DNA of 64,000 bases. Source: Nitrospirota bacterium (GTDB lineage Bacteria; Nitrospirota; UBA9217). Every line of letters starts with the position of its first letter. Position 1 is the stretch's first letter. The translations under genes were made by a program, and so were the position numbers. The DNA is taken from positions 14,644 to 78,643 of the forward strand of contig JBARBN010000228.1 in the NCBI GenBank assembly GCA_049793155.1. The letters are read 5' to 3'. Positions 27,036 to 59,560 of this stretch are shown in pieces. The notes under the pieces were generated by a model that saw only the letters and a program-made list of their open reading frames with translations, had not been told where the DNA came from and did no database searches.

Positions 27036-27089
27036 TTGTTAAAACTTGATGACTGTATTGTTACAATTTGATAAAGAATTTAATAACCG
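27036..27089 (-). promoter_or_regulatory. Direct-repeat array A (5 heptamers at 11-bp spacing) upstream of the NusG-like/tps operon
   Basis: TTGTTAAaac TTGATGActgt aTTGTTACaat TTGATAAagaa TTTAATA. It lies about 180 nt upstream of the NusG-like start. Confidence 0.5.
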
Positions 27090-27203
27090 CTAGTGCAAAA
27101 AGATTGTTCGCAAAGAACGCAATAAAAAGATCAAATATTTATTTTTGGCATTACGTGCTCTGTGTTCCATGCGAGCTCTACGGCTGATGTTTCTTCCCCG
27201 ATT

Positions 27204-28091
27204 CTAATCTGCCTTCAGTAAGGGCTTTGCATCAATGACCTTTCCCACGGTCACATCGCAAAGCAGCGTCTCACCGCCGAAGGAATTCCCGAAGTCGACG
27301 GTTATGCCCTTGTCGTCTACGTCGGTGATGTGTCCTACCATTTCGCCAGCCCGGACGAGCGCTCCTTTGCGGGCCTCAATGTCCACTTTGTAATCCTGGC
27401 CATCATCTCTGATGCGTCCGGGGCCGAAAGGCGTCTCGATGACGGCGCCTGGCGTCGCGGAAAACCGGATCGTCACTTCCTGGTCTGAAATGGACTCGAC
27501 CCTGCCGGGGAAATCGGGATCATAGGAATATGCTTGTCCCACTTCCGGAGATTGCTTGGCCCTGTACTCATAATCTCCCCTCGGCATTTTCATTTCCTTG
27601 GGCCGGGTGCGGACCCGGGTCAGGTGCGCGATATATTTTGGTGCTTCCTGATCCGGTACATCTTCCGCCTTGATCTCCGCCGTGCGACTATCGCCTTCCT
27701 TCATGCTGACAATGGCAAACGCGAGCTGATGCGAAATTTCCTCTTCCATTGACCGTTGCACGTAAGGCGTCGACTGCACTTGCACGGCATCCGCGGCGCT
27801 GACCGCCTCAATTGAAAGGGGAACAGCCTCATCCTTCTGCAAATAGGCGTTCGACTTTCGTTGGATCTCGGCAACGATGTCCGTTGCAGCCACAACCTCG
27901 CCCGACCGGAGTCGACACAAATAATGGACGGATGCCGTATCGCCGGGCTTTATCTCCTTCGCCTGCGCACGGTCAGTTGTGGGTTCAGGCTGCAAGGTCT
28001 GATGCGTTCCCGGGGTAGCACACCCCGTGATTGCCAGCAGGCAAACGGACACCTGAATAATTGTCTGAATTTCTTTCCCGTTAAACTTCAT
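27204..28091 (-). CDS. FKBP-type peptidyl-prolyl isomerase lipoprotein (two FKBP/SlyD-like segments)
   Basis: Lipobox LLAITGCATP. IKPGDTASVHYLCRLRSGEVVAATD resembles the FKBP GDxVxVHYxGxLxDG motif. The C-terminal GHITDVDDKGITVDFGNSFGGETL is SlyD-like. Confidence 0.5.
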   Translation of the reverse strand: MKFNGKEIQTIIQVSVCLLAITGCATPGTHQTLQPEPTTDRAQAKEIKPGDTASVHYLCRLRSGEVVAATDIVAEIQRKSNAYLQKDEAVPLSIEAVSAADAVQVQSTPYVQRSMEEEISHQLAFAIVSMKEGDSRTAEIKAEDVPDQEAPKYIAHLTRVRTRPKEMKMPRGDYEYRAKQSPEVGQAYSYDPDFPGRVESISDQEVTIRFSATPGAVIETPFGPGRIRDDGQDYKVDIEARKGALVRAGEMVGHITDVDDKGITVDFGNSFGGETLLCDVTVGKVIDAKPLLKAD

Positions 28092-28227
28092 GGCTCACTT
28101 CCTTTTCATAAATAAATTTTGCCACAAAAAGCACATTTAATATTCGCTTTCCCTTGTGTTCTTTGTGACTCTGTGGCTAAGACGATTTCAGGCTTATCCG
28201 GTTTAGGCAACGAACTCTATCACAGCT

Positions 28228-28270
28228 CTGTTACACCAATATGACAGTTGAATTAAGATTTGATGATAAC
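28228..28270 (-). promoter_or_regulatory. Direct-repeat array I upstream of the FKBP lipoprotein gene
   Basis: cTGTTACAccaa TATGACAgttg AATTAAGattt GATGATA. Preceded by CTATCAC, as in arrays C and D. Confidence 0.45.
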
Positions 28271-28282
28271 GTAAATAAAAAT

Positions 28283-28306
28283 GCGGGGCTCTGAACAGAG
28301 CCCCGC
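28283..28306 (-). terminator. Intrinsic terminator downstream of 28356..29615
   Basis: GCGGGGCTCTG-aaca-GAGCCCCGC. In the minus direction it is followed by AUUUUUAUUUACGUU. Confidence 0.6.
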
Positions 28307-28355
28307 GAAGGTTAAGACCAGCCCGTGATTTTTAACAGGCTGCAGAGTTCAAAGC

Positions 28356-29615
28356 TTAGTTGCAGTTTGCATTGTGATATTTCGTGTTTACTACGAAGCC
28401 GCCGAAATTGCTGTTTTTGATACGATGCATGTTGCACGAAGCTGACCAGTTGGGATTAACCGAAGTGATTGTGCTGGGCTGGCTTGCATACGTGCACAGG
28501 TCTTGCATGATGGGGGTCGCGGATACGGTGGTGTTCGCATACAGATTCTGGATCGTGGTGAATGGCCAGCTGTAGTCATCAACATTGGCCGTGATCGGTG
28601 AGATGCCGTCGAGTGTGAGGCGGACCGTATTGGGGAAGGTGGTGCCGAGAACCTGGTCCGCATCAGCATAACCGATGGCGCCGGCGCCGGTCCAGGTGCC
28701 GCTGCCGTTGACGCACCTCATCAGATCAGACGAACCGTCGTTAAAATAGAAATGCGCGCCGGAGCCGCCGGTGACAGCGTTCTGGATCATCCCTGAAGGC
28801 CGCATAAAGGAATCCATGGTTGCATGGGTGCCGGAACCCGCGTGGCGGTAGCAGACATTAACAGGCATAGAGGACATGCTGACAGCCTGCAGGTCCGCCC
28901 AGTTCTGAATAACGCCCTGGAATATCATCCTCGCTTCTGCGGTGCTGATGTTGCTTATCGTGGTGGTCCCATCCGCCAGTTTCACGGTGTTGTTCGCAAA
29001 GAACGCGAAGGGGACGGCAAGCGGACGGCAGTAAGCTGTCGTGTTTGAGGTGAGCACAAAAGGATTCGTCTGAAAATTGCGGACCGTCTGGACCCCGCCT
29101 AAGGGGCCAAGCAAAAGGCCGCTGGATTTCTGCACAAAGTCTCCCACCTGGACATCGGATGCGCCGATGGTCACGGGCTGGCAGGTCAAAAGTGTGGTGC
29201 TTCCGGGGTTGTCCAGCATCGGACGATAGTTAGCCCCGTTTGAAACTTCGCACGTCGTGTCACGGGACGGGTTGGTCGTGTTGCCATCCGCGGCAAGAGG
29301 ACCGTCATAGGAGGCCTTGGACGAAACGCGCCAATTGACGGTGTTTGATCCACAGGTGGCCTGCTGGATAAAGTGCTTGCCGTCAGATGATGAGGCGGAA
29401 CCGCCCAGGGTGCATCCTGCAGCCGTCAGATAGTGCGGGATCTCGCTCTTGAAAAAAGTAAACTCAGCTGATGCTCCATAGACGTTCAAGTCACCGGTAG
29501 GCGCGACCGGCGTGCCGGTTCCGGTTGAATATGTTGTCGCTGCCGAAGCGGCGCCCGCGAACGCGATGAGGGCTGCACCGGCAATGACGGAGGTAAAGAT
29601 ATTCTTGAGTTTCAT
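28356..29615 (-). CDS. Secreted protein with a divergent PstS-like (phosphate-binding periplasmic protein) fold
   Basis: Signal peptide. YRHAGSGTHATMDSFM parallels VHRSDGSGTTAIFTDYL in the bona fide PstS of this window. NVYGASAEF and IGYADADQ resemble PBP-fold motifs. Otherwise unknown. Confidence 0.35.
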   Translation of the reverse strand: MKLKNIFTSVIAGAALIAFAGAASAATTYSTGTGTPVAPTGDLNVYGASAEFTFFKSEIPHYLTAAGCTLGGSASSSDGKHFIQQATCGSNTVNWRVSSKASYDGPLAADGNTTNPSRDTTCEVSNGANYRPMLDNPGSTTLLTCQPVTIGASDVQVGDFVQKSSGLLLGPLGGVQTVRNFQTNPFVLTSNTTAYCRPLAVPFAFFANNTVKLADGTTTISNISTAEARMIFQGVIQNWADLQAVSMSSMPVNVCYRHAGSGTHATMDSFMRPSGMIQNAVTGGSGAHFYFNDGSSDLMRCVNGSGTWTGAGAIGYADADQVLGTTFPNTVRLTLDGISPITANVDDYSWPFTTIQNLYANTTVSATPIMQDLCTYASQPSTITSVNPNWSASCNMHRIKNSNFGGFVVNTKYHNANCN

Positions 29616-29699: not shown

Positions 29700-30449
29700 T
29701 TAGGCAACTGTCTTCCTACGGAGACCGACGAGACCCATCAGACCCGAGCCGAAGAGGTAGATAGCAGCCGGGATCGGCGTAGCTTGCGCGACCAGTTGCG
29801 TGGAGCCGTCAGCGAAGGTACGAATCGTAGCGATGCTCGTGCCTTGTGCTCCGGAACTCGGATCAGAGCCGTAGTAATAGAGAACCTGGTCAACATAGCT
29901 CGAAGTAGCAAGCGCCCCCAGATTCTTCTCGGCATCGCCCGATGCAAGATAATTGCCCATCGTTCCGATCATGGTTCCGCCGCCATTCATCATGTTCCAG
30001 TAGGAATACGTACCGGTCTGTGCAACCGTTGCATTGTTGCCGACTGCGGCGCCACGGTAAGTATCCAGAGTGCTACCTGCAGCTGGACTGAATGACCCCC
30101 AGAACGCATAGGGGTTGATGTTACCGGCGTTTGCCGGACCGCTGGCATAGGCAGAACCATTGCCGCCATTCGCGGTATTGGACAGGATGAAGTAGGCGAC
30201 ATTGGTATTGGCCAATGTCGCGCCTGACCCTAACTTGCTAAGGCTGAAGGTGTCCGTATTGAAGGCCACATTGGTGGTAAGAGGTGCGCTCGCTGAAAAA
30301 GCACCGAGGTCTGTTGCGTACTCCGTGCCGGCGCCGGTCCCGCTATATACCACGCGGATCAGATCGCCTTCGTCGAAAGCGGCCATTGCCTGACCGGCGA
30401 AACTGACCATGAGCATCATGGCTACAAAAAGCAAAATAATTTTTTTCAT
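29700..30449 (-). CDS. Secreted protein with a VPLPA-type PEP-CTERM exosortase sorting signal
   Basis: Signal peptide MKKIILLFVAMMLMVSFAGQAMA. The C-terminus ...ATPIPAAIYLFGSGLMGLVGLRRKTVA has a P-x-P-A motif, a TM helix and a basic cluster. Confidence 0.65.
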   Translation of the reverse strand: MKKIILLFVAMMLMVSFAGQAMAAFDEGDLIRVVYSGTGAGTEYATDLGAFSASAPLTTNVAFNTDTFSLSKLGSGATLANTNVAYFILSNTANGGNGSAYASGPANAGNINPYAFWGSFSPAAGSTLDTYRGAAVGNNATVAQTGTYSYWNMMNGGGTMIGTMGNYLASGDAEKNLGALATSSYVDQVLYYYGSDPSSGAQGTSIATIRTFADGSTQLVAQATPIPAAIYLFGSGLMGLVGLRRKTVA

Positions 30450-30845
30450 TGTTTTGTTTCCTCCTGAGTTTTTTAAAATCAATCGAAATCGTTCCTACCC
30501 AGCGTTTCGTGCGTGTATATCTGGAGACGCTGCGTATGCTTTTTACCCTCAGGCGACCCGGCCATCCACCTCTGGTGGACCCGCTGGTTTTCCGTCACCC
30601 GGTTGCCCGGGCTTTGGCTTTATTCTGAAGGCCGGATGCTGACTTGCGCAGACATCCTACCGAGTTGTATACATCATCTATGCTGTCTCTATCTCCCCCT
30701 CCTTTCTTTTATGGATGTATTGAGTGGGCCTGTCAATTTGAACTGTAATAAATCATTACGCGGCAGGCTCCCGACCCGGGCTTTCTGTTACCTTATTCAG
30801 GTCAGCTAAGTACCCTGGTACTAAATAAAAGACGATAAATAAAAA

Positions 30846-30892
30846 AAGCCCGAATCCTGATAAGAACTCACTCTTATCCATGATTCGGGCTT
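30846..30892 (-). terminator. Intrinsic terminator (hairpin plus U7) downstream of gene 31056..32228; part of repeat copy 1
   Basis: AAGCCCGAATC-ctgataagaactcactcttatccat-GATTCGGGCTT. In the minus direction it is followed by UUUUUUUAUUUAUCGUCUUUUAUUU. The loop carries its own inverted repeat (gataagaa/cttatc). Confidence 0.6.
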
Positions 30893-30940
30893 TCTGGTGC
30901 GCGACTGAATTCTGTCGGTCAGCAAAGGACCCTGATGATC
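30846..30940 (-). repeat. Leader/terminator repeat element, copy 1 (about 95 nt)
   Basis: Hairpin plus TTTCTGGT(A/G)C plus the CGGTCAGCAAAGGACCCTGA(T/G)GAT box. About 85% identical to copy 2 at 32237..32335. Confidence 0.6.
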
Positions 30941-30994
30941 ACTTGTTCATTTTATGCTTCTTGATCGTTAACGTAGCGAATACTACACGTCGCA

Positions 30995-31035
30995 GGTTAC
31001 ATGGTGATGACAGTTCAATGAAAGTTGTGTGAAGA
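30995..31035 (-). promoter_or_regulatory. Direct-repeat array X1 (TGATGA-type)
   Basis: ACATGGTGATGAcagtTCAATGAaagtTGTGTGAag. About 70% identical to array X2 at 32794. Confidence 0.4.
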
Positions 31036-32228: not shown

Positions 32229-32236
32229 AATAACGC

Positions 32237-32285
32237 AAAAGCCCGAATCGGGATAAGAATATGATCTTATCTCTGATTCGGGCTT
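32237..32285 (-). terminator. Terminator-like hairpin in the 5' leader immediately before the start codon of 31056..32228 (candidate attenuator); part of repeat copy 2
   Basis: AAAGCCCGAATC-gggataagaatatgatcttatctct-GATTCGGGCTTT. In the minus direction it is followed by UUUGCGUUAUU and then the ATG. Confidence 0.5.
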
Positions 32286-32335
32286 TCTGGTACCCTGGCG
32301 ATATAATCCGCCGGTCAGCAAAGGACCCTGAGGAT
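32237..32335 (-). repeat. Leader/terminator repeat element, copy 2 (about 95 nt)
   Basis: Same modules as copy 1. A partial third copy (box plus a different hairpin) lies at 44441..44514. A box-only match TCAGCAAAGTACCC lies at 26977..26990. Confidence 0.6.
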
Positions 32336-32338: not shown

Positions 32339-32473
32339 CTACTTTTTTAGAATTTCTTCAAATTTCTCGATCCGCTCGACGCTTCCGCGGGTGAAATTGA
32401 TCCTGATGTATCCTGTGAATTTTTTGTCCATAAGAGCTTTAATTACTTCCATCATTTTTTTTATTTTTTCCAT
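32339..32473 (-). CDS. Small conserved protein S2 (44 aa), paralog of 26131..26325; absent from the ORF track because it is under 60 aa
   Basis: Hand translation of the reverse complement: ATG GAA AAA ATA AAA AAA ATG ATG GAA GTA ATT AAA GCT CTT ATG GAC AAA AAA TTC ACA GGA TAC ATC AGG ATC AAT TTC ACC CGC GGA AGC GTC GAG CGG ATC GAG AAA TTT GAA GAA ATT CTA AAA AAG TAG. Confidence 0.55.
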   Translation of the reverse strand: MEKIKKMMEVIKALMDKKFTGYIRINFTRGSVERIEKFEEILKK

Positions 32474-32556
32474 CGATCTCTGCTCTTTTCGTGGACATGC
32501 CTGATGTAGCTGAATGCTTTAGTTCCGGCTGTAGGGAACAATTTATAACATACAAT

Positions 32557-32600
32557 TGTTACATTTTGATGACCATTTAATTAAAGTTCCGTGAAATGAT
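32557..32600 (-). promoter_or_regulatory. Direct-repeat array B upstream of small protein S2
   Basis: aaTTGTTACAttt TGATGACcatt TAATTAAagtt CCGTGAAA. It lies about 85 nt upstream of the S2 start. A TATAAA/TATGTT -10-like element lies beyond it in the minus direction. Confidence 0.45.
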
Positions 32601-32793
32601 CATTGGCAATTGCATTTTTCATATTCGAGTGACCAACAGCGCATTTCCTTAATATTCTGTTCATAAGTGCGATAATATTTTGATATCCTTGTTACTCTTT
32701 CCTTTGACCGCATAGGTACGATACTGTTCATTCCATCTGATATTTTCCCTGGCGCTCTTAACTAATGACTCATCTTTTACCACATATATATTT

Positions 32794-32832
32794 CATGGTG
32801 ATGAACGTTCGATGAAAGTTCAGTTAATTTAT
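32794..32832 (-). promoter_or_regulatory. Direct-repeat array X2 (TGATGA-type)
   Basis: CATGGTGATGAacgtTCGATGAaagtTCAGTTAATTTATC. Confidence 0.4.
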
Positions 32833-32853: not shown

Positions 32854-34692
32854 TTACGAAAAATGCTTTCTGCCGCGGAATAACACAAGACACAAGACAG
32901 CCGCTAAGAATGCAAAACCAGCCGGGGAAACTGCTGGCACCGGTGTGGCGGTCTGAATTGCGGCAAAGGTTGCCTCGACAGTGTGCGCGGAGGTGACAGC
33001 GGCAATAGTATAGGTGAATGTTCCAACCGGATATTCAACTGCCGATACTGATGAGCCGTTATCCTTGAGAGCGACGAGTGTATACCCTGTCAACGGCTTG
33101 ATGGTAAAGAAGGCGCTGCTTCCATAATTGGCAGTCGGGCTGCTGGGCGTATTGGAGCCGCCCAGGGAGTTGGTGACCGTACCCACAAGGGTATAGCTGG
33201 TAATCACGGCGCCGCAGTTTGCCGTACTCCCTCCGTTCTGTCCAGTGCAGGTCCAGTACCATGGACCGGTTCCGGTAACTGTTGACGGGGTGCCGGCGGA
33301 ACAAAGGCCGGTTGTGGGTGCTGTGGTATAGGTCTGGCCGTTCGCGCTGCCGCACAGGCCGTTGATCGGGGGCGGCAGCCCCAGACTGGCTGCGAGATTA
33401 AGACGGGGTTTGACGATCGAATTGCGCGGATCGGTTATGGGAACCCCGTTCGTCGTCATGCGCGCTGTAGTCTGGTCAAGCGAGTCTGTAGGGAAAGCAG
33501 CCCTGAGTATGGCCACCGCGCCTGCCACGTGGGGTGATGCCTGCGATGTCCCTCCCATGGTAATGTTGGCCGCGGTGATCAATGCCCCCGGCGCCACCAT
33601 GGTCAGAAACGAGGCGCTGTTCGAGAAGCAGGTGACCTGATCTGCCGTTGTCGTAAAATCGGTGCAGATACCCCAGTTCAGTCCTCCTACATTGCTGTCA
33701 TAAACCGCGCCCACAGACACGACTCCCGGCGTGCAGGCAGGGCTTGCAATGCCGTTCGTATAGGCATCGTTGCCGGATGCCGCCACCGGGAGGATGCCTG
33801 CCGATCGAGTGTTATTGAGCGGCGTGACAAAAGGGTTGGTATGACTGTTGCTGCATGGGGCGGCATAGTTGACATCGTCACCCAGGCTCATATTCAGGGC
33901 GACGATATTGTATGCGCTTTTATTGGTAATGGTCCAATTGATTCCGGCAAGGACCCAGTTGGTGTTCGAGGACCCGTTGGAAAATACGTTGATCGCAGCG
34001 ATTCGGGCGCCCGGAGCAACTCCGGCCACGATCCCGGCAACATTAGTGCCGTGATTGTTCGGATCGGTATTCAGCGTAAGGTTATTGCCGGTCACATCCA
34101 CAGAGGCGGCAACTTTACAATCTGAAGGAACTCCCGGCGCAGAGCATGAACCGAAAGCTGCGAGGGTATAGTTGATCCCGGTGTCGATGACCGCCACCCC
34201 CGAGCCGCTCCCGGTAAAGCCGGCCTGAATTGCCTGAGGCTGATTGATGAGGGGCAGACTTTGGGTTAATGAAGGATAGATAGGACGATTTTCATAGACC
34301 GCCACGACCTCGGGCCGCGTCAGGAAACGTTCGAGGGCCGGACGACTTTTGAATCGAATAAAGGACATGGGGAGATGGCTATAGTCCTGAACAAGCTCGG
34401 CTTCGCCGGGCAACATCACTGCCTCGGCCCGCTGCTTGATCTCCCGGTAGCGGTCCGCCCTGAAAGAAAGGATGGCATCATCATCGTGCGGTAGATGAGC
34501 ACGGTCCCTTCGGGCTGTTGCCTCTGTTTCAACATCGCGATCATCATAAAGAACGATCACGTCCTGCGGGACACCAGCCGCCAGACTGTCCAGCACACCC
34601 TGGGGAAGGGCCGGCGCGGCGATTGCGGTCAGCGACGCGGTGCAGCAGATCGTTGCGATGGCGTATATAACGAGACGTCTGAGGATACACAA
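32854..34692 (-). CDS. Subtilisin-like serine protease (peptidase S8) with a C-terminal PEP-CTERM-like sorting signal
   Basis: Catalytic triad contexts VAVIDTGI (Asp), NNHGTNVAGIVAG (His) and GTSQASPHVAGAVAIL (Ser). Signal peptide. The C-terminus ...ATPVPAVSPAGFAFLAAVLCLVLFRGRKHFS carries the sorting tail. Confidence 0.8.
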   Translation of the reverse strand: MCILRRLVIYAIATICCTASLTAIAAPALPQGVLDSLAAGVPQDVIVLYDDRDVETEATARRDRAHLPHDDDAILSFRADRYREIKQRAEAVMLPGEAELVQDYSHLPMSFIRFKSRPALERFLTRPEVVAVYENRPIYPSLTQSLPLINQPQAIQAGFTGSGSGVAVIDTGINYTLAAFGSCSAPGVPSDCKVAASVDVTGNNLTLNTDPNNHGTNVAGIVAGVAPGARIAAINVFSNGSSNTNWVLAGINWTITNKSAYNIVALNMSLGDDVNYAAPCSNSHTNPFVTPLNNTRSAGILPVAASGNDAYTNGIASPACTPGVVSVGAVYDSNVGGLNWGICTDFTTTADQVTCFSNSASFLTMVAPGALITAANITMGGTSQASPHVAGAVAILRAAFPTDSLDQTTARMTTNGVPITDPRNSIVKPRLNLAASLGLPPPINGLCGSANGQTYTTAPTTGLCSAGTPSTVTGTGPWYWTCTGQNGGSTANCGAVITSYTLVGTVTNSLGGSNTPSSPTANYGSSAFFTIKPLTGYTLVALKDNGSSVSAVEYPVGTFTYTIAAVTSAHTVEATFAAIQTATPVPAVSPAGFAFLAAVLCLVLFRGRKHFS

Positions 34693-34901: not shown

Positions 34902-35216
34902 TCATGGTTCGATGATCAATTTGCCAACGGGTTCATCCGTAGGAAATTCTATCTGTGCAGCGAATCCTTCTAGAATTCTGAGAAACGCTTCCTGCTTATC
35001 CCGCCCTTCAACCTGCCAATAGGCGTGCGCGATATGCCTCATCAAGTCTGCAATCATGATCCCATAAGCCGCCGGGTCTTTCCAGGCGTCGGCTCTGACC
35101 GTAACGTAAGGAGCGCCATCAACATACCAGACGCTGAATAGCTCGAAGGCATCCGCCGCTTGAGTAGTCTTGTTCGGTGCGGGCAATGCCTTCATTTTCG
35201 GAATCACTGATGCCAT
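34902..35216 (-). CDS. Hypothetical small protein (104 aa)
   Basis: Intact ORF with coding-like composition: WYVDGAPYVTVRADAWKDPAAYGIMIADLMRHIAHAYWQVEG. A direct-repeat array lies about 135 nt upstream. Confidence 0.45.
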   Translation of the reverse strand: MASVIPKMKALPAPNKTTQAADAFELFSVWYVDGAPYVTVRADAWKDPAAYGIMIADLMRHIAHAYWQVEGRDKQEAFLRILEGFAAQIEFPTDEPVGKLIIEP

Positions 35217-35351
35217 GTCTCATCACCTTTTCGGTATGCATGCCGGATGCTGCAGGGGGCATCGTATGTGGCGCCCCTTCAATAGGCCTTACTGTTCCAT
35301 AACTGCAAAAGATTTATAATTAATGCAATGCACGCGTCACCCTATCAGTTG

Positions 35352-35395
35352 ATTGTTACAAGGTTATGAAGGACAGGTTAATTTATAATTAATTT
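35352..35395 (-). promoter_or_regulatory. Direct-repeat array C upstream of 34902..35216
   Basis: gaTTGTTACAagg TTATGAAGgac aGGTTAATTtat aATTAATTT. Almost identical in architecture to array D. Confidence 0.5.
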
Positions 35396-37859: not shown

Positions 37860-37977
37860 ATCTCCTCCTTAATTTAAAGCTATTGTACTAGCCGATAGTC
37901 GGCGACCGGTAGGTTTAGTTGGAAGACATGGATCATTCGCAGCCGATCATGTTTCTTATTCATGCGTTATGCTACGC

Positions 37978-38022
37978 TATCAGAATATTGTTACAGATTT
38001 ATGAAGGGCAGGTTAATTTATG
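37978..38022 (-). promoter_or_regulatory. Direct-repeat array D upstream of the phosphoesterase-exosortase operon
   Basis: taTTGTTACAgat TTATGAAGggc aGGTTAATTtat gATTAATTC. It lies about 120 nt upstream of the phosphoesterase start. Confidence 0.5.
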
Positions 38023-38052
38023 ATTAATTCTGTTGAAGAAAAGGGATTATAA

Positions 38053-44376: not shown

Positions 44377-44440
44377 TGTACTTCTCCTTTTGTTATTAAA
44401 TTATTCGCCTGGTAGGGCGATAGAACCTGGCAAAATAAAA

Positions 44441-44481
44441 AAACCCGGAGAAGAACCTCAACAGGTTCGTTTTCCGGGTTT
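44441..44481 (-). terminator. Terminator-like hairpin in the leader of the VPLPA-CTERM gene 43684..44376
   Basis: AAACCCGGAGAA-gaacctcaacaggttcg-TTTTCCGGGTTT. In the minus direction it is followed by UUUUUUAUUUUGCC. It sits between array E and the ATG, just after the conserved box GGGCCCTTTGCTGACC. Confidence 0.5.
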
Positions 44482-44552
44482 TCTGTTTCCTTTATAAGGT
44501 CAGCAAAGGGCCCATGTCTGATTACGAATTCTTGCGTATTAAATCATATTTT

Positions 44553-44595
44553 CATTACAAGATGATGAAGGATCCGTTAATTTGCCGTTAAATTA
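44553..44595 (-). promoter_or_regulatory. Direct-repeat array E upstream of the VPLPA-CTERM gene 43684..44376
   Basis: cATTACAAgatgaTGAAGGatcc GTTAATTtgcc GTTAAATT. A TATGAT -10-like element follows in the minus direction. Confidence 0.45.
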
Positions 44596-46996: not shown

Positions 46997-47079
46997 TTTG
47001 TTCTCTTTTGTCGACTGTTTCACCATTTTTATCTCCTTTGCCGCAGGTTTTTAAAATATCCTGTCCCCATCTGACAACT

Positions 47080-48479: not shown

Positions 48480-48504
48480 CTTATGCTCATTCTTCCCCGG
48501 TGCG

Positions 48505-49629: not shown

Positions 49630-49783
49630 TTTTTCGTCTCCATCATTTCAGGCCTCTGATGGTACTCCTTGTTTATTACAAGAGTATGACGATATAATTA
49701 TTTTTTTGTTACAGCGGAAACTTGAAGTGATATTGAAACGGGATAAATCCACTTTGAAAACCGTTTGTCTTTGCTGAAAAAAA

Positions 49784-52322: not shown

Positions 52323-53015
52323 CTATTTATCGAGGTTTACAAGTTTGGGGTCCATCAACGACTTGCTATCCAGGTTTGCCCCTCTCATGTTCGCCCCATT
52401 CAGATTCGCCCTGGTCAGGTCCGTCCCGCTCAGGTTCGCCTTGCTCAGGTCCGCCTTGCTGAAGTCCGTACTGCTCACATTCGCATTACTCAAGTCCGCC
52501 TCGCTCAGGTTCGATTTGCTCAGGTCCGCCTTGCTCAAGTCCGCCTTAGTCAGGTCCGCCTTGCTCAAGTTCGCCTTACTCAGGACCGCACCGCTCAAGT
52601 TCGCTTTGCGCAAGTTCGTCCCGCTCAGGTCTTGTTCTTCCAGATTTATTCCGTTCAGGTCCGCCCCATTTAAGTCCGCTCCGCTCAGGTCCGCTCCGCT
52701 CAAGTCCGCTCCGCTCAGGTTCGCGCCGCTCAAGTCCGCCCCGCTCAGATTCGCCCCGCTCAAATCTACCTCGCTCAGTTCCGCCCCGCTCAAGTTCGTC
52801 TTGCTCAGGTCCGCCCCGTCCAAGTCCTGCCCCTTCAGGTTCACCCCGTTCAGGTCCGCTCCGCTCAGGTCGCACTGGGCGCATTGATTGGTCTCTCTTA
52901 ATCTATCCAGATCAGGCTGCGCAAAACCGTATACGACGCTGCCTGTCAGAAACACGCAAAAAAAGGTTATCCCCAGCAGTGTTGCGGTCATCCTTCTCTT
53001 CATTTTTGTCTCCAT
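52323..53015 (-). CDS. Secreted pentapeptide-repeat protein
   Basis: Signal peptide METKMKRRMTATLLGITFFCVFLTG, then about 35 consecutive A(D/N)LSG pentapeptides (DLSGADLSGANLSGADL...). Encoded by 15-bp-periodic DNA. Confidence 0.8.
   Translation of the reverse strand: METKMKRRMTATLLGITFFCVFLTGSVVYGFAQPDLDRLRETNQCAQCDLSGADLNGVNLKGQDLDGADLSKTNLSGAELSEVDLSGANLSGADLSGANLSGADLSGADLSGADLNGADLNGINLEEQDLSGTNLRKANLSGAVLSKANLSKADLTKADLSKADLSKSNLSEADLSNANVSSTDFSKADLSKANLSGTDLTRANLNGANMRGANLDSKSLMDPKLVNLDK
52380..52900 (-). repeat. 15-bp-periodic tandem DNA repeat encoding the pentapeptide repeats
   Basis: Runs of GTCCGC(C/T)CCGCTCAG variants (for example 52675-52760: gtccgctccgctcaggtccgctccgctcaagtccgctccgctcaggttcgc...). 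Confidence 0.7.
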
Positions 53016-53041
53016 GTCAACTCCGGTTCCTGGAATAAAAA

Positions 53042-53073
53042 AAAGCCCGCCACGAATGAATTCGCAGCGGGCT
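53042..53073 (-). terminator. Terminator-like hairpin plus U8 in the leader immediately before the pentapeptide-repeat gene start
   Basis: AAGCCCGC-cacgaatgaattcgca-GCGGGCTT. In the minus direction it is followed by UUUUUUUU, then about 18 nt, then the ATG. Confidence 0.45.
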
Positions 53074-53285
53074 TTAAGGTACCCCTGATAGAGGGGCCTA
53101 AAAAGTACCCAATGATTAAATGACAGCCACTTGCTGAATGGGCGAGTGTTACTTCTGATCACCCATCGTGATAAGGTAAAAAAATCAAGTCTCACACAAA
53201 ACCACAAAGTAAAGAAACTTCGTTAATCAAGAGATTATCTTTGTGATCACTATTCGAATCATTTTTTAACACATAATTATTACAA

Positions 53286-53325
53286 GATGATGACCGTTAA
53301 ATTAATATTTCGTGAAATTGTCGTG
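53286..53325 (-). promoter_or_regulatory. Direct-repeat array F upstream of the pentapeptide-repeat gene
   Basis: TTATTACAAgatgaTGACC GTTAAATtaat ATTTCGTGAAATT. Confidence 0.4.
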
Positions 53326-53622
53326 ATAAATAACCTTTATAGATGCAGGCCTTGTCACCCTGAGTGGACGGGATAAACATCGAACATGGTGCTACTTGAG
53401 CCCGAGATCAGCGATAGTACTTTGACCACGCCGATGCTTTCAGGCAAACAGTCATAATTACCGGGCGTTGCTGGAGAAGACGGGATGGAGGGCATTGTTC
53501 GACGGAACTAACCGAAGAGCAACGTGGAATCATTAGCGGTATAAGTTCTTAGTCCGCTCCCATTGAGAGGAGCCGAAGAAGATATTTGTTCTGCTTTATC
53601 TGTCGTCCCACCAAACTACATC

Positions 53623-54312
53623 TCAACTTGGATTGCTGTCATCACTCGCCCGCTCTTCACATGCCGTGTGGCGAATGACCTTCCCTTTGACCATATACAC
53701 GACCATCTCCGCGATGTTGGTGGCATGGTCGGCAATGCGCTCAAGATACTTCGTAATGTAAGTGAGGCGAACAGCGCGTGATATGTTCTTTGGATCTTTC
53801 AGCATATACACGAGCAATTCATTGAAAATCTGATAGTTCAAATTGTCCACATAGTCATCAGACGCACACACCTTCATGGCGAGGTCGGCATCCTCTCTCA
53901 CAAAGGAATCAAGGCTGTCCTTGAGCATTGTCTGAGCCGCTTCTGCCATCCGAGGAATATCGATAAATGGCTTGAGCGGCGGTTCTTCGTTCAGCTCGAT
54001 GGCCCGCTCGCAGACGTCGACGGCCAGATCGCCCATGCGTTCGAGATCGGTGATGATCTTTATGGCGGTTGTAATCAAACGGAGCGTGCTGCCCGTGGGC
54101 TGCCAGATGGCAAGCAGTCTGATGCACTCTTCCTCGATCTCGACATCGTAATTATTGACAATGGCGTCGCCGTCGATGACCGTGATTGCCAGGTTCCGGT
54201 CCCGTTCAACCAGCGCTTTGACGGACTGCCTGATGGACTCTTCGACAAGGCCCCCCATTTTGAGGACCCGCTCCTTCAGCGCTTCAATATCCTCTTCTTT
54301 TTGTCTGGCCAT
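53623..54312 (-). CDS. phoU: Phosphate transport system regulator PhoU
   Basis: Two PhoU repeats with the conserved ...ITDLERMGDLAVD... and ...YLERIADHATNIAE... helices. Confidence 0.85.
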   Translation of the reverse strand: MARQKEEDIEALKERVLKMGGLVEESIRQSVKALVERDRNLAITVIDGDAIVNNYDVEIEEECIRLLAIWQPTGSTLRLITTAIKIITDLERMGDLAVDVCERAIELNEEPPLKPFIDIPRMAEAAQTMLKDSLDSFVREDADLAMKVCASDDYVDNLNYQIFNELLVYMLKDPKNISRAVRLTYITKYLERIADHATNIAEMVVYMVKGKVIRHTACEERASDDSNPS

Positions 54313-54405
54313 TCAGTACTCCCTCTTTGTAATTGAAGCATTATAAGAATACGGATTGAATAAAATCAAAGCACCGCCAAGCATTCGTCGTTCAACCTTT
54401 TCCGT

Positions 54406-55170
54406 TTAACCGAACCTTCCCGTTATATAATCGTCGGTTTGCTTATTGTCCGGGTTCGTAAAGATCTTCTCCGTGGTCGCGTACTCGATCAGTTCGCCCA
54501 TATACAGCAGGCCTGTCATGTCCGATACGCGGGCTGCCTGCTGCATGTTGTGAGTGACGATGATGATCGTAACATCCTTTTTCAACGACACGACAAGTTC
54601 CTCGATCTTGGCCGTTGAAATCGGGTCCAGCGCCGAGGTGGGCTCATCAAAGAGGAGGACTTCCGGTTCAACGGCCAGGGCCCGTGCAATGACAAGACGC
54701 TGCTGTTGTCCTCCGGACAACTCATAGGCGCTCTCATTCAGCTTGTCCCTGACTTCCGTCCAGAGCGCCGCGTGTTTGAGCGCATCTTCGATCCGCCCGA
54801 CGAGTTCCGATTTGTTCCTGATGCCTCTCAATCTGAGTCCATATGCTATGTTCTCGGCAATGCTCATGGGAAACGGCGTCGGCTTCTGGAATACCATTCC
54901 GATTCGGCTGCGTAGATGGATGAGGTCAATGTCATGCGCCAGAATATTCTTGTCCTGGAAGTGGATCTCCCCCTCATACCGGTGTTTCGGATACAGGTCA
55001 TGCATTCGGTTAAAGCATCTGAGCAGCGTCGTTTTGCCGCAGCCGGACGGACCGATCAAGGCGGTAACCTTTTCCTTATAGATCGTCAGCGATATATTCT
55101 GAAGGGCGTGAATATCTCCGTTATAGTAAAAATCCAGGTTTTTGACCTCGATCTCTCTCGTTGCTGTCAC
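54406..55170 (-). CDS. pstB: Phosphate ABC transporter ATP-binding protein PstB
   Basis: Walker [13 protein letters not shown] signature [14 protein letters not shown], Walker [13 protein letters not shown] and a PstB-like C-terminus. Confidence 0.9.
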
Positions 55171-56009
55171 TGCTTATACCTCCACTTTAAGATGAGTCTT
55201 CCGGCAATAGTAAGCATGAGAATAAAAAGGGTTATGACCAATGCCGCGCCCCATGCCTGGGAATGCCAGCTTTTATAGGGCCCCATGGCATACTGGAAGA
55301 TAGTGACCGTCAGCGACGCGATAGGCCGGTTCATGTCCGTTGAAAAAAAATTATTGTTGAACGAGGTAAACAGGAGCGGCGCGGTTTCACCCGCGACCCG
55401 GGCGATGGACAGCAGAATACCGGTCAGTATGCCGGTGGCCGCGCCGCGGTACACGACCTGGACGATCACCTTGTAATAGGGAGCGCCGAGGGCAAACGCC
55501 GCTTCCCGCAACGTCCAGGGCACCAGTGACAGCATGTCCTCCGTTGTCCTGAGCACCACCGGGATCATGATGATCGAGAGCGCGAACGCCCCCGCCCAGC
55601 CGCTGAAATGATGGAGCGGTCTGACAAGGATCGCGTACACAAAAGCGCCGACCACAATGGAAGGAATGCTGACCATGATGTCGGAAATAATACTGATTAT
55701 CCTCGCGATCGTTCTTCCCCGGGCATACTCGGCCAGAAAGGTCCCGCCGAGAACGCCGACCGGAACCCCGATTAACGTGGCGGCCAGGGTAATCATCAGT
55801 TGCCCGATAAAAGCGTTTTTTAAGCCCCCGCCTTCAACACCTGCAGGTGCAGGATCATTGAAGAACAGGCTTAAGTGCAACGCGCCCAGGCCATGGATGA
55901 GAACGTCGGCCAGGATATACACAAGCCAGAAGAGACCCGTTGCCGCGGCAAGACCGCTCAGCGTCAGCGCGACGAAGCTCTCTATCTTTCTTTTTTTCTC
56001 GACGTTCAT
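55167..56009 (-). CDS. pstA: Phosphate ABC transporter permease PstA
   Basis: Six TM helices. EAA-like loop ...[18 protein letters not shown]. Its stop overlaps pstB. Confidence 0.85.
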
Positions 56010-56947
56010 CGTGAATACTTTCTCTCTGCCTTCAGAAGAAAGAATTTGGATATCGCAAGGATGATAAAACTCATCGCGAACAGTATGAGCGCGAGATAAA
56101 AGAGTGACGAGAGATAGAGGTCGCTGTCAGCTTCCGTAAATTCGTTCGCAAGGCTCACCGTTATGGTGGAGGCAGCGTCGAGAAGCGACGTGGCGATCTT
56201 GTGATTGTTCCCGAGCACGAAGGCTACCGCCATGGTCTCGCCCAGCGCCCGGCCCAGGGACAGTGCTACGCCCCCAAACACGCCGAGCTTAGAATAGGGA
56301 AGCACCACGTTTTTGACCACTTCCCACTGAGTCGCCCCGATAGCATAGGCCGACTCCTTGACCACGGAGGGGGTCAGATTGAATGAATCACGCGCGATGC
56401 TCGCCGTGAACGGAATGATCATAATGGCGAGGATAACACTCGCCGTCAGCAGGTCGATGCCCATGGGAGTGCCCTTGAACAGAATGCCGACGAGGGGCAG
56501 CTGTCCGATGGTGTTCTGGAGCGCTGGTTCGATATACTTAGACATGATCGGAGCAAGGGCGAACAGCCCCCACATGCCATAGATGATGCTCGGGATTGCG
56601 GCAAGTAGTTCTATTGCGATGCCGATGGGACCCTTCAGAAAATTGGGCGCGATTTCTGTGACAAAGATGGCGATACCGATGGCGGTGGGTATGGCGAAGA
56701 GCAGGGCCAGGCCGGTCGTGAGGAATGTGCCGTAAATTGTGGTTGCCGCGCCGAACATTCCGGTCACGGGATTCCACGCCGTCGAGGTCAGAAATTCAAT
56801 CAGCCCGAACTTCCCGATCGCGAGTGAGGACTCCTGCAAAAGCACGGTGATGATGCCGATAATAAAGATGATGACGGTAAAGGAGGCGATTGCAGTGAGG
56901 GAGAGAAAGAGCATCTCAGGGATGTTTTTTTTCGACAATATGGCCAA
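56006..56947 (-). CDS. pstC: Phosphate ABC transporter permease PstC
   Basis: Six TM helices. ESAYAIGATQWEVVKNVVLP loop. Its stop overlaps pstA. Confidence 0.85.
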   Translation of the reverse strand: MAILSKKNIPEMLFLSLTAIASFTVIIFIIGIITVLLQESSLAIGKFGLIEFLTSTAWNPVTGMFGAATTIYGTFLTTGLALLFAIPTAIGIAIFVTEIAPNFLKGPIGIAIELLAAIPSIIYGMWGLFALAPIMSKYIEPALQNTIGQLPLVGILFKGTPMGIDLLTASVILAIMIIPFTASIARDSFNLTPSVVKESAYAIGATQWEVVKNVVLPYSKLGVFGGVALSLGRALGETMAVAFVLGNNHKIATSLLDAASTITVSLANEFTEADSDLYLSSLFYLALILFAMSFIILAISKFFLLKAERKYSR

Positions 56948-57066
56948 TGCATGGACCTTTCCGCATTAACGAACGATTCCCAACAAAACGTAAACGGGTC
57001 AGGCATCATTGGTATAGATACCTGACCCGCTTATTTCAATCTATTTCTTATCTATCGGACTGACGT

Positions 57067-58080
57067 TTACTGAATGCCGTTCGCTTTCCAGTACGCCCTA
57101 ATTTTATTCTGCAGCGATAGCGGAAGGGGAACATAAATCAGCTCTTCGGCTTTCGCCGCGCCGTTTTTAAATGCCCAGTCAAAGAATTTCACGACCTTCA
57201 CATTCGATTCCTTTTTCTCCTTAGCGAGCAGGATGAACGTAGCGCCCGCAATGGGCCACGCCTTCTTGCCCGGGGCATTGGTGAGCATGTAGTAGAAATC
57301 AATCTTCGGATCGAACGTGCCCGTGGCAGCGGCGTCTTCAAAACTGTCCGAACTCGGTGTGACGACGGCGTTGGCGGAGTTCTTAAGAAGCGTATATGCC
57401 ATATTGTTCTGTTTCGCATAGGCGAATTCCACGTACCCGATGGAGTTTGCCTGCTGCTGCACGTAATTGGCTACACCCTCGTTGCCTTTCCCGCCGATGC
57501 CGACGGGCCAGCTCACAGATGTCCCGGTCCCGACTTTTTCTTTCCACATCGGTGACACCTTGCACAGATAATCCGTAAAGATAGCGGTCGTGCCAGAACC
57601 ATCGGAGCGATGGACCACGGTAATTTCAGCCGCCGGAAGGTTGAGCTTCGGGTTCAGCGCTTTGAGTTTCGGATCGTTCCAGTTTTTTATTTCGCCCAGG
57701 TAGATTTTAGCGACCGCTTCCGAATCGAGGGTCAATTCTCCCGCCTTCACGCCGGGAATATTGACCACGAGTACGTCCGCGCCAATCACTGCCGGGAATT
57801 GGATCAGGTTGTCCTTAGCGAGCTCTTCCGGCTTCAGCGGCTTGTCCGAAGCACCGAAGTCAACCGTCCGTTCGGTGATCTGCTTGATGCCTCCGCCCGA
57901 ACCGATGGATTGATAGTTCAACTTCATTCCCGTCACCTTGTTGTATTCATTGGCCCATGCCGAGTATACGGGATAGGGAAACGTGGCGCCTGCGCCGTTC
58001 AACATCTCTTCCGCCTGCGCCATATTGAACGACAGCAGACCTATAACCACTAACGCAAAAACGAGTACACTTCTTTTCAT
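57067..58080 (-). CDS. pstS: Phosphate-binding protein PstS
   Basis: Start at MKRSVLVFALVVIGLLSFNMAQA, preceded by an AAGGAGG Shine-Dalgarno. Motifs GAGATFPYPVYSAWA, SIGSGGGI and HRSDGSGTTAIFTDYL are canonical PstS. Confidence 0.9.
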   Translation of the reverse strand: MKRSVLVFALVVIGLLSFNMAQAEEMLNGAGATFPYPVYSAWANEYNKVTGMKLNYQSIGSGGGIKQITERTVDFGASDKPLKPEELAKDNLIQFPAVIGADVLVVNIPGVKAGELTLDSEAVAKIYLGEIKNWNDPKLKALNPKLNLPAAEITVVHRSDGSGTTAIFTDYLCKVSPMWKEKVGTGTSVSWPVGIGGKGNEGVANYVQQQANSIGYVEFAYAKQNNMAYTLLKNSANAVVTPSSDSFEDAAATGTFDPKIDFYYMLTNAPGKKAWPIAGATFILLAKEKKESNVKVVKFFDWAFKNGAAKAEELIYVPLPLSLQNKIRAYWKANGIQ

Positions 58081-58129
58081 CTTTTTTTCCTCCTTAAATT
58101 TTAAATCATTGAAATAGTATGCCATGTAA

Positions 58130-58172
58130 TTGTTACAGGATTGTTACAAGTTGATTAATTTTCTGTTAAATT
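58130..58172 (-). promoter_or_regulatory. Direct-repeat array G: candidate Pho-box-type promoter of the pstSCAB-phoU operon
   Basis: TTGTTACAgga TTGTTACAagt TGATTAATttt CTGTTAAAttg is four heptamers at exact 11-bp spacing. In the minus direction it is followed after about 8 nt by a CATACTAT -10-like element, then AAGGAGG and the pstS ATG. Confidence 0.6.
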
Positions 58173-58285
58173 GCTTTCGCGTTGCAATTTATTTTACGAG
58201 CCGTTACTTGAAACTACTGTTGTATATGAATTTTCGGGTATTCCAAGCTGAGCATCCTGATGGCTGAAGCTTTTATTATTCCGTC

Positions 58286-59452
58286 TTATTCTGCACTATA
58301 AAGGCCTCTCTGACTATTCACCTGTTGTAACGGCAGAGATACGACAAATGTCGTTCCTTTCCCATAGCTGCTTGTTAGTGAGATCGTACCGCCTAAAAGT
58401 TCCGCAAGATTCTTGCTGATCGACAGGCCAAGCCCCGTCCCGCCCTGTTCTTTGGTTTTTGCGTCCTCGATCCGGCCGTAGGTTGTAAAGAGCTTATGAA
58501 CGTCCTCTTCTTTTATCCCGACACCCGTATCGCTGATCGCGATCTCCATCCAGCTACCGATGACGGAAAGCGTGATCATGATTTTACCCTGTTCGGTGTA
58601 CTTCGCCGCATTGCTGACCAGGTTAATGAGGATCTGCCTGAGCCTGACGTTGTCCGTATTTATCATCACGGACAGTGAGGGCTCCCTGACCTCCACGCTC
58701 ACCGGCTTATTCCCGATAAGGATGCGGGCGGTTTCCGCAATTTCAGAAATGAGCAATGCTGCATTAACCATCTGATTCGCCACCCCGGCATTTAACACAA
58801 CATCGGCCGGTTCACTTATCACTGGAGCGATGTCGACGTGTTTGACGGACAGGCTTTTTCCTCTTGTTTCAAGCCGGGGCAGAGGTGTCGCGTCACGAAG
58901 CAGGCGTTCTGCATGGGAAGCGACAGTATTAATGGTCTGGAGATGTTTATTCGAGCTATCCTGTCTGAGAGCGTGTGATGAAAATCCGCCAATGACATGT
59001 ATTGAACCTTTTAATTCATGAACTAAACACTGCAGGGCCGTGTCCTGTTCCTGCTCACGGGCCATGAGCTCTTTGATCGTTTCCTGTCGGTCAATGTGTT
59101 TTTTTATCTTCAGCAGCAGTTCTTTCACGGAATATGGCTTGGAAAGGTAATCATCGGCGCCAAGGCTGAGGCCCTTGACGCGCTCCTCTTCTTCGGACAG
59201 CGCGGTCAGCATGATGATCGGCAGCGATTTTCCGTTTGTGCTCTCGCGCAAAATACGGCAAACTTCCCAGCCATTAAGCTCGGGCATCATGACATCCAGG
59301 AGGACCACATCCGGCATTTGCCGCTGCACGGCTTCTATTGCTTCCTTCCCGTTGCGCGCGATCACCGCTTCATAGTTCTCTTTTTGGAGGTTATACGTGA
59401 GGAGCTCTGCACAATCATTTTCATCTTCAACAATAAGAATTTGTTTTTTCAT
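58286..59452 (-). CDS. Hybrid response-regulator/histidine-kinase (N-terminal receiver plus HisKA plus HATPase)
   Basis: Receiver: ILIVEDE...VVLLDVMMPELNGWEV...IIMLTA. H-box LVHELKGSIH. ATPase boxes NLVSNAAKY, ISDTGVGI and GGTGLGLSISK. No TM segments. Confidence 0.8.
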   Translation of the reverse strand: MKKQILIVEDENDCAELLTYNLQKENYEAVIARNGKEAIEAVQRQMPDVVLLDVMMPELNGWEVCRILRESTNGKSLPIIMLTALSEEEERVKGLSLGADDYLSKPYSVKELLLKIKKHIDRQETIKELMAREQEQDTALQCLVHELKGSIHVIGGFSSHALRQDSSNKHLQTINTVASHAERLLRDATPLPRLETRGKSLSVKHVDIAPVISEPADVVLNAGVANQMVNAALLISEIAETARILIGNKPVSVEVREPSLSVMINTDNVRLRQILINLVSNAAKYTEQGKIMITLSVIGSWMEIAISDTGVGIKEEDVHKLFTTYGRIEDAKTKEQGGTGLGLSISKNLAELLGGTISLTSSYGKGTTFVVSLPLQQVNSQRGLYSAE

Positions 59453-59513
59453 AAAACACTGGTCCCAACCTTTGCAGGTAATTTCAATTAGCAGTCAACA
59501 CTATAACCTGATT

Positions 59514-59560
59514 CTGTTACAGGAATATGAAGCCTGCGTTAAATGTTGGTTACAATAAGA
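59514..59560 (-). promoter_or_regulatory. Direct-repeat array H upstream of the receiver/histidine-kinase hybrid gene
   Basis: CTGTTACAgga ATATGAAGcct GCGTTAAAtgt TGGTTACAata. A TATAGT -10-like element follows in the minus direction. Confidence 0.5.

Follow-up and report, generated by a model that had tools for sequence, protein, structure and literature searches.

The Escherichia coli Pho box comprises two 11-bp repeats with the core CTGTCAT, and in Bacillus subtilis the PHO box is made of four TT(A/T/C)ACA repeats with an 11-bp periodicity (PMC11870197). The SphR box of the cyanobacterium Synechocystis, PyTTAAPyPy(T/A), is built from at least three repeats of 8 bp plus 3 bp, with a period of 11 bp as well, and also drives the small RNA PsiR1 (PMC4195498). 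In this study I describe twelve arrays of 11-bp-phased direct repeats in a 64-kb stretch of contig JBARBN010000228.1 from a Nitrospirota bacterium (the window, which denotes the whole stretch). Judged from their sequence, these arrays are very probably the Pho boxes of this Nitrospirota lineage, i.e. sites for a phosphorylated PhoB/PhoP-type response regulator, and the island that carries them would be a compact phosphate-starvation unit of 12 co-oriented transcription units. No paper describing a Pho box of this phylum was found in the literature searched, and none of the top-ranked literature matches for PEP-CTERM together with the Pho regulon mentions PEP-CTERM.

Repeat units and promoter geometry

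In an initial annotation of the window, eleven minus-strand arrays with an 11-bp periodicity had been named, and every one of them was found again, within about 20 bp of its original placement, when all minus-strand intergenic regions from 27 to 60 kb were inspected. A scan with a position weight matrix (PWM) detected an additional array (anchor 49680), resulting in 12 arrays across 33 kb, each of which is identified here by a single anchor, the T of its promoter-proximal TGTAAC (Table 1). All 12 arrays are located in non-coding DNA of the minus strand, upstream of and co-oriented with the genes behind them, as had been proposed; every called open reading frame (ORF) of the window is also on the minus strand. 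The earlier range of three to five repeats per array narrows to a core of four direct repeats per site in strict 11-bp phase, that is, one helical turn, with a fifth repeat in the array at 53284.

Pooling the 48 units of the 12 sites in this 11-bp register gives the unit consensus t-[G/T]-T-[A/C]-A-[C/T] (t-K-T-M-A-Y), and the array unit [G/T]T[A/C]A[C/T] covers the units of E. coli, B. subtilis and Synechocystis; unit position 2 is T in 47 of the 48 units, and unit position 4 is A in all of them. The three heptamers originally listed as the repeats do exist on the plus strand, but they are not separate motifs, as they are the reverse complements of TGTAACA, TTCATCA and AATTAAC, which are variants of one unit. 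Aligned on the promoter-proximal TGTAAC, the site consensus is AAtTTaAC.aAAaaTTAAt..AaC.gTCATaAtC.TGTAACAat.at.TG.TA.AaT, so each site reads as four repeats, N6, usually TGn, and a TAnnnT-like -10 element. The array thus stands in the place of the -35 element, about 10 bp upstream of the -10 of a predicted transcription start, in all 12 sites. The spacing TGTAAC-N10-TAnnnT is invariant, with the -10 starting 9 bp past the end of the heptamer, and this replaces the variable distance of 5-10 bp reported before. A TG at the extended -10 position is present in 9 of the 12 sites. For the array at 27043, I also considered TATAGT as the -10, located 4 nt past the last box, until the alignment placed TATGGT at the canonical spacing.

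The two arrays at 35360 and 37995 had been called near-identical, and they are indeed alike, although the claim was somewhat overstated (84% identity, 47 of 56 nt). The CTATCAG described as lying upstream of this pair corresponds to the extended -10, which is TGATAG on the minus strand, and hence lies downstream of the repeats.

The 60-nt PWM was trained on 10 sites, with those at 27043 and 49680 kept outside the training set, and it recovers both (scores in Table 1). Leave-one-out (LOO) scores range from 18.9 to 66 bits, whereas 100 windows simulated with a first-order Markov model reach at most 6.7 bits, both strands included, with zero matches above 8. In the window itself the PWM has no match on the plus strand, and none in the first 1-27 kb, the polysaccharide and two-partner secretion (TPS) region. 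The degenerate pattern TCATN5TGWAAYN10TA occurs 9 times, exclusively on the minus strand, versus 0.04 times expected from dinucleotide-preserving shuffles.

Ordinary sigma-70 promoters were rejected as an explanation, as a consensus scan of 26.5-45 kb found no -35/-10 pair at any of the arrays in that region, in line with promoters that depend on an activator and have the proximal repeat where the -35 would be. A promoter of the extracytoplasmic function (ECF) type was likewise rejected, since only 10 nt separate TGTAAC from the -10.

Like the PhoP core binding region of B. subtilis, the arrays consist of four 11-bp-phased repeats at roughly -60 to -20 that replace the -35, and both TTAACA and TTCACA are covered by their repeat core [G/T]T[A/C]A[C/T]A. 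Unlike in B. subtilis, the proximal repeats favour TGTAAC(A) and (G/T)TCATC, which are nearer to the TGTCAT of E. coli, most promoters add a TGn-extended -10, and the host is a didermic Nitrospirota and not a Firmicute. The E. coli pstS promoter, the sequence of which was verified between glmS and pstS in 5,423 E. coli genomes, has a Pho box (CTGTCATA(A/T)A(A/T)CTGTCA(C/T)) with the same 11-bp period and four repeats, no -35, and a position upstream of pstSCAB-phoU; its TGTCAC-N10-TATTTT equals the TGTAAC-N10-TAnnnT observed here, and several third boxes in the window are TGTCAT. In contrast to E. coli, the A/C slot of the unit is A in 30 and C in 17 of the 48 units, the distal boxes are AT-rich and cyanobacteria-like, (A/T)TTAA(C/T), and the content of the regulon is very different. 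With respect to the Synechocystis SphR box, the two distal boxes (ATTTAAC and AATTAAT/C) fit PyTTAAPy at the same period, whereas the proximal boxes have TCATC and TGTAAC instead of TTAA and the host belongs to another phylum.

Conservation at pst promoters and the putative regulator

The PWM trained on the window was used to scan 80 loci (labelled L001 and so on). The closest relatives of the PstS protein all come from metagenome-assembled genomes (MAGs) of Nitrospirota, including Candidatus Sulfobium, Thermodesulfovibrionales and Thermodesulfovibrio, from which I infer that the host lineage belongs to the class Thermodesulfovibrionia. In these relatives the array is present upstream of pstS in 17 out of the 17 Nitrospirota pstSCAB loci with enough upstream sequence (14.9-57.9 bits), where PstS identity to that of the window is 66-84%. 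The distance from the array to pstS is about 50-65 bp in related loci, and 235 bp in L006. Alignment of the pstS promoters shows that the -10 and the four 11-bp-phased boxes TGTAAC/TTTAAC/(T/G)TAAT are kept, while spacers and flanks have diverged. The control set of 53 loci, proteobacterial and other (about 620 kb), contained no match of at least 14 bits, and the AT-rich loci of Thermodesulfobacteriota had no PWM match either, so that low G+C content alone is not the source of the matches.

Within the window, the array before pstS had been regarded as a textbook activator site, and this description stands: the operon is a genuine pstSCAB-phoU, with a PstS (57067-58080) that scores 413 bits against an NCBIfam equivalog cutoff of 339, and the geometry of the site is that of the E. 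coli pstS promoter. The start of pstS was reassigned to the ATG at 58080, which has a GGAGG before it, because the ATG at 58125 of the long ORF falls inside the -10 region of the promoter. Further array targets in related genomes are a 230-aa PHP-domain phosphoesterase (5 genomes), a hybrid of a receiver (REC) domain and a histidine kinase (HK) (4 genomes) and a second type of PstS (2 Thermodesulfovibrio genomes). In L006 and L012 the motif-bearing pst operons are adjoined by PhoB-like regulators, for which TIGR02154 (PhoB) is the best NCBIfam family. The initial annotation had read the arrays as one phosphate-starvation regulon, and with an array before pstS in all 17 related loci, arrays before phosphoesterase genes in relatives and the geometry of the E. 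coli pstS promoter, the comparison points to the same conclusion.

Another regulator of the OmpR family that binds tandem repeats could in principle respond to a different signal (envelope, surface or biofilm) and control pst as well. Many of the targets are indeed surface or secretion genes (the exosortase XrtH, VPLPA-CTERM proteins, TPS), some share their leader with a riboswitch for cyclic di-GMP (c-di-GMP), the island encodes REC and HK proteins of its own, and 11-bp direct repeats are common throughout the OmpR/PhoB family. I consider this improbable, as pstSCAB-phoU is the most conserved target, in 17 genomes that include ones without the island's surface genes within about 6 kb on each side of pst; moreover, other conserved targets are phosphoesterases, the arrays agree with known PhoB/PhoP sites in unit sequence and in spacing to the -10, and the REC proteins of the island have no DNA-binding domain.

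Several observations weigh against the interpretation of the arrays as Pho boxes. The census of the window covers 64 kb of this genome, and a search of it for a DNA-binding regulator of the OmpR/PhoB type yielded none, only REC-only and REC-HK proteins; as no PhoB or PhoR gene is located within these 64 kb, I infer the identity of the regulator as PhoB. The motif was not found in five loci with orphan pstS paralogs from more distant relatives, and the PhoB-like proteins of L006 and L012 score 273 and 282 bits, slightly under the equivalog cutoff of 296. The array at 27043 is weak, at 22 bits. Finally, for many of the targets no part in phosphate acquisition is known (the TPS adhesin and the pentapeptide, radical-SAM, HupE-like and DUF5076 proteins), which could indicate a broader or a different signal.

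If the arrays are Pho boxes, the established mechanism of PhoB/PhoP suggests how they would work, and the binding protein, the dimer stoichiometry, the contact with sigma and the induction by phosphate limitation are all taken over here by analogy with it. Under phosphate limitation PhoR would phosphorylate PhoB, both presumably encoded elsewhere in the genome. Two head-to-tail PhoB dimers would then occupy the four 11-bp repeats, roughly from -61 to -22 relative to the predicted transcription start, and with the promoter-proximal repeat in the place of the -35 the bound PhoB would recruit sigma-70 RNA polymerase, while the TGn-extended -10 may help to make up for the missing -35. The expected output comprises high-affinity uptake by pstSCAB-phoU and three phosphate-releasing enzymes, XrtH that would anchor two secreted proteins of the island (the 5'-nucleotidase and the S8 subtilase), VPLPA/PEP-CTERM surface proteins, the operon for a TPS adhesin and the REC-HK hybrid kinase.

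The near relative L001 is the MAG MFD05442.bin.1.86, which shares 84-98% identity with the window in its flanking proteins. In this genome a leader and a gene with LTD and VPLPA motifs (L001:10447-10943) directly follow phoU, and the window has about 8.7 kb extra between 44600 and 53600, with the pentapeptide, purple-acid-phosphatase-like, PEP-CTERM, radical-SAM and HupE-like genes. This segment brings two Pho-box promoters of its own, and it therefore looks like an insertion/deletion polymorphism of regulon modules.

The absence of this segment and its two arrays from such a close relative could also be expected if the arrays were a dispersed repeat, MITE-like (miniature inverted-repeat transposable element) or made of duplicated promoter cassettes, that had spread within the island with no shared regulator; the 84% identity of the arrays at 35360 and 37995 over 56 nt and the leader copies at 30935 and 32331, which look like recent duplicates, are in line with such an origin. 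Outside this one pair of arrays, however, conservation is limited to the four boxes and the -10, with spacers and flanks differing. Neither terminal inverted repeats nor target duplications are present, and no copy lies in genes or on the plus strand. As the same architecture is found at orthologous pstS promoters where PstS identity is only 66%, I consider a dispersed repeat hardly credible.

A conserved leader RNA in tandem with a c-di-GMP-I riboswitch

Four of the arrays (44559, 32563, 31001 and 27043) drive a leader RNA first. The leader element is present in five copies, two of which are at 31001, and has the consensus GGGyvCUUwGCUGAsy, a variable hairpin and AyCrGAAArCCCg. Three copies, those behind the first three of these arrays, are followed by a strong terminator, the 5' arm of which reuses the GCCCG of the second block; these terminators were identified by folding, as a simple terminator scan misses them because their loops exceed its limit. 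Searches against Rfam with gathering thresholds and at E <= 5 assigned the leader to no family, with c-di-GMP-I and chance miRNA matches on the terminator as the only results.

In metagenomes a strict leader pattern finds 74 loci (L081-L154), mostly from peat and wetland samples, versus about 8 estimated by chance. Some 60 unique copies look genuine and nhmmer adds 43 copies that do not fit the pattern, which gives at least 100 copies in wetland metagenomes. Of 61 sequence variants, 53 form the hairpin between the two blocks (P2; mean z -2.4), and in the long-hairpin class three of its pairs change on both sides, with 93% of the cells able to pair versus at most 52% when the partner is slid by 1-3 columns. 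The putative closing helix (P1) is invariant on both sides, partly since the search pattern fixed them, and among the copies that do not fit the pattern a U-to-G change at one position is left uncompensated. A terminator tail that overlaps P1 is present in 44 of 58 leader copies, and a second, degenerate copy follows within 140 nt in 18.

The genes after the metagenomic leaders mostly encode VPLPA/PEP-CTERM proteins of 200-270 aa, homologous to 29700-30482 of the window, after which genes for PstS-like, FKBP-like, TpsB and TpsA proteins follow in conserved order. The third type of leader has homologs before FKBP-like genes in L092, L095 and L104. As in the window, a c-di-GMP-I riboswitch is located between leader and gene in 16 of the 20 metagenome loci tested. 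In 438 kb of sequence chosen solely by the leader, the Pho-box PWM has 73 matches of at least 16 bits, many at orthologous positions: VPLPA genes are preceded by 15 of them, FKBP-like genes by 7 and homologs of the 390-aa protein by 3. XrtH genes are also targets, and the link between Pho box, leader and riboswitch is therefore general in this clade.

The leader resembles attenuating riboswitches and leader RNAs in its invariant core around a variable, covarying hairpin and in a terminator that shares nucleotides with the putative closing helix, and its position in the 5' untranslated region (UTR) in tandem with a c-di-GMP-I aptamer is like that of tandem riboswitch leaders. Unlike known riboswitches, it matches no Rfam family and its closing helix is without covariation support. 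The leader may function as an antiterminator under the control of a ligand or a protein, or as a short RNA that acts in trans. I tentatively propose a control with three inputs, a possibility that I rate somewhat short of probable: a PhoB promoter is followed by an undescribed cis-regulatory RNA (GGGUCCUUUGCUGACC, ACCAGAAAGCCCG, the covarying hairpin and a competing terminator), which may represent a new class of riboswitch or of protein-dependent antiterminator, and then by a second copy and the c-di-GMP-I riboswitch. If so, the VPLPA/PEP-CTERM proteins and the linked cassette of PstS-like, FKBP-like and TPS proteins would be made only if three conditions coincide: scarce phosphate, an additional signal from a ligand or protein, and a suitable level of c-di-GMP.

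Compatible with genuine PhoB sites, the arrays at 31001, 32563 and 44559 could mainly produce a phosphate-starvation RNA of about 90-320 nt that ends at the leader terminator and acts in trans, for example by an exposed CCUUU stretch resembling an anti-Shine-Dalgarno sequence. Both the strong terminators after these three leaders and the terminator tails of the metagenomic copies would suit such an RNA, and Synechocystis offers a precedent in the non-coding RNA PsiR1, which is driven by a Pho box (PMC4195498). Nevertheless, the leader is always directly upstream of and co-oriented with protein genes, mostly for VPLPA-CTERM proteins, and is often followed by the second copy and the c-di-GMP-I riboswitch, which is typical of a cis-acting attenuator, and a main role in trans is therefore unlikely. 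A recruitment site for the UpxY/NusG paralog of the island was also considered for the leader and found to be unsupported, as no UpxY homolog is present in the 74 leader-bearing loci, in whose genomes the gene could lie elsewhere.

Transcription units of the island and neighbouring genes

Besides the pst operon, the arrays are located upstream of phosphate-scavenging enzymes, and most of the targets listed at the outset were recovered (Table 1). The three phosphatases among them are an acid phosphatase (TIGR03397, 467 bits versus a cutoff of 363), the 1501-aa metallophosphoesterase/5'-nucleotidase and a purple-acid-phosphatase-like protein; three VPLPA/PEP-CTERM proteins account for the sorting tails, the REC-HK hybrid kinase for the two-component genes and UpxY-TpsB-TpsA for the tps operon, while the second pst-like binder is present as a PstS-like protein with a weak assignment. 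The exosortase is XrtH (NCBIfam TIGR04177, 90 bits versus a cutoff of 86), but it has no array of its own, being the second gene behind the acid phosphatase, and the array at 35360 serves the DUF5076 gene and perhaps that of the S8 subtilase.

Table 1. Arrays, operon and RNA elements of the window, in the order of transcription on the minus strand
Feature	Position	Strand	Anchor	Sequence and score	Genes and elements behind, remarks
Array 1	59500..59555	-	59521	TTGTAACC/ATTTAACG/GCTTCATA/CTGTAACA, N6, GGT, TATAGT; LOO 32 bits	REC-HK hybrid kinase 58286-59452; orthologous sites before the same gene in L001, L004, L005 and L026
Array 2	58116..58171	-	58137	-10 CATACT; LOO 42 bits	pstS
pstS-pstC-pstA-pstB-phoU operon	53623..58080	-			Pfam; PstS by NCBIfam equivalog
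Array 3	53263..53329	-	53284	five repeats; LOO 66 bits	pentapeptide-repeat protein 52323-53207, purple-acid-phosphatase-like protein 50422-52179, PEP-CTERM protein 49833-50411
Array 4	49659..49714	-	49680	27 bits, untrained; also matches TCATN5TGWAAYN10TA	genes 44938-49629: membrane/TPR-like 48505-49629, radical-SAM 47080-48228, small membrane protein ORF 46406-47026, HupE/UreJ-like 44938-46356
Array 5	44538..44593	-	44559	ortholog in L001 62.6 bits	leader RNA, LTD/VPLPA-CTERM protein 43684-44376, REC protein 42972-43448, 1501-aa 5'-nucleotidase/metallophosphoesterase 38442-42947
Leader copy with terminator	44432..44519	-		short-hairpin form; terminator 44432-44484	ortholog at L001:10839
Array 6	37974..38029	-	37995		acid phosphatase 36459-37859, exosortase XrtH 35413-36456
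Array 7	35339..35394	-	35360		DUF5076 protein 34902-35216, possibly S8 subtilase 32854-34692
Array 8	32774..32829	-	32795	proximal box TGAAATA; LOO 49 bits	short ORFs only, e.g. 43-aa ORF 32600-32731
Array 9	32542..32597	-	32563		44-aa ORF 32339-32473, leader copy and terminator, secreted 390-aa protein 31056 to ~32228; orthologs of the latter gene with PWM matches in L101, L119 and L121
Leader copy with terminator	32232..32335	-		terminator 32232-32284, fold energy -40 kcal/mol, z = -4.4	
Array 10	30980..31035	-	31001		leader copy and terminator, second leader copy, c-di-GMP-I riboswitch, VPLPA-CTERM protein 29700-30449, PstS-like binder 28356-29615, terminator at 28283-28306
Leader copy	30837..30939	-		GGGUCCUUUGCUGACC, hairpin, ACCAGAAAGCCCG	intrinsic terminator 30837-30890
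Second, degenerate leader copy	30771..30821	-		GGGUACUUAGCUGACC..GGUAACAGAAAGCCCG	
c-di-GMP-I riboswitch aptamer	30549..30628	-		RF01051, 53.9 bits versus gathering score 35	5' UTR of the VPLPA-CTERM gene
Array 11	28214..28269	-	28235		FKBP-like lipoprotein 27204-28091; ortholog matches in 7 metagenome loci
Array 12	27022..27077	-	27043	weakest array; -10 TATGGT; 22 bits, untrained	leader copy, UpxY-family antiterminator (NusG paralog) 26364 to ~26867, TpsB 24392-25993, TpsA 13998-24392 (3464 aa)
Leader copy, third type	26938..27000	-		GGGUACUUUGCUGAGUUGGUGC..GCAUCAACGACCGGAAAGCCC	no clear terminator

The 1501-aa enzyme ends in ..VPALGIWG, a transmembrane segment and RRRR, a tail that resembles a sorting signal for XrtH. 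This tail and that of the subtilase match the model of XrtH substrates weakly (17-18 bits, cutoff 45), so the 5'-nucleotidase and the S8 subtilase are candidate XrtH substrates.

The REC-HK hybrid consists of a PhoB-like receiver fused to a kinase core resembling PhoR/PnpS, without a DNA-binding domain. Its gene is immediately upstream of pstS with a Pho box of its own, an arrangement kept in the four loci with orthologous sites (Table 1), and the protein may be a component of feedback or of a phosphorelay.

At the other end of the island, the UpxY/NusG paralog behind its Pho box heads more than 17 kb of tightly packed genes (9202-27026, minus strand), which continue from TpsB and the 3464-aa TpsA to an ExbB-like protein with lectin domains, ExbD, TonB and a porin. 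This organisation fits a processive antiterminator serving a very long operon.

In relatives, small Cys-rich proteins ending in ..CPIFLAKI(L/I)R(K/G)R are encoded by the first ORF after the Pho-box match at L002:403, L011:5395 and L016:5249, and the arrays at 32795 and 32563 of the window likewise precede small ORFs (43 and 44 aa). Another short ORF (38150-38305, minus strand, MEEEIRKAAVRRYILQGESPKSIYISLNRSKQWFYKWLRRYH...), located between the 5'-nucleotidase gene and the array at 37995 and followed by a terminator, resembles the helix-turn-helix left over from a transposase.

The stretch 60516-63999, on the same strand and immediately upstream of the island, encodes a REC protein, a bifunctional ornithine-lipid synthase of the OlsF-like type (394 bits, under the cutoff of 620) and a protein resembling the transmembrane domain of lysyl-phosphatidylglycerol synthase (lysyl-PG-synthase-TM-like). 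These genes, whose promoter lies beyond the end of the window, are candidates for the synthesis of phosphorus-free membrane lipids.

The array type itself is of a well-known kind, the Pho box, and the undescribed leader RNA may be the more novel part of these observations. The predicted regulon is unusual in that, besides uptake and phosphatases, it combines XrtH and its likely substrate, the 5'-nucleotidase, with the VPLPA-CTERM family, a giant TPS adhesin behind a NusG-like antiterminator and a hybrid of a PhoB receiver and a kinase, which suggests that the cell surface is remodelled in response to scarce phosphate. The leader, which occurs in tandem with a c-di-GMP riboswitch, offers a concrete candidate for a regulatory RNA of a new kind. 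For the uncultured but widespread anaerobic Nitrospirota/Thermodesulfovibrionia of wetlands, peat and groundwater, the motif would provide the first operational definition of a Pho box, and with the PWM their phosphate-starvation regulon could be read directly from MAGs and metatranscriptomes.

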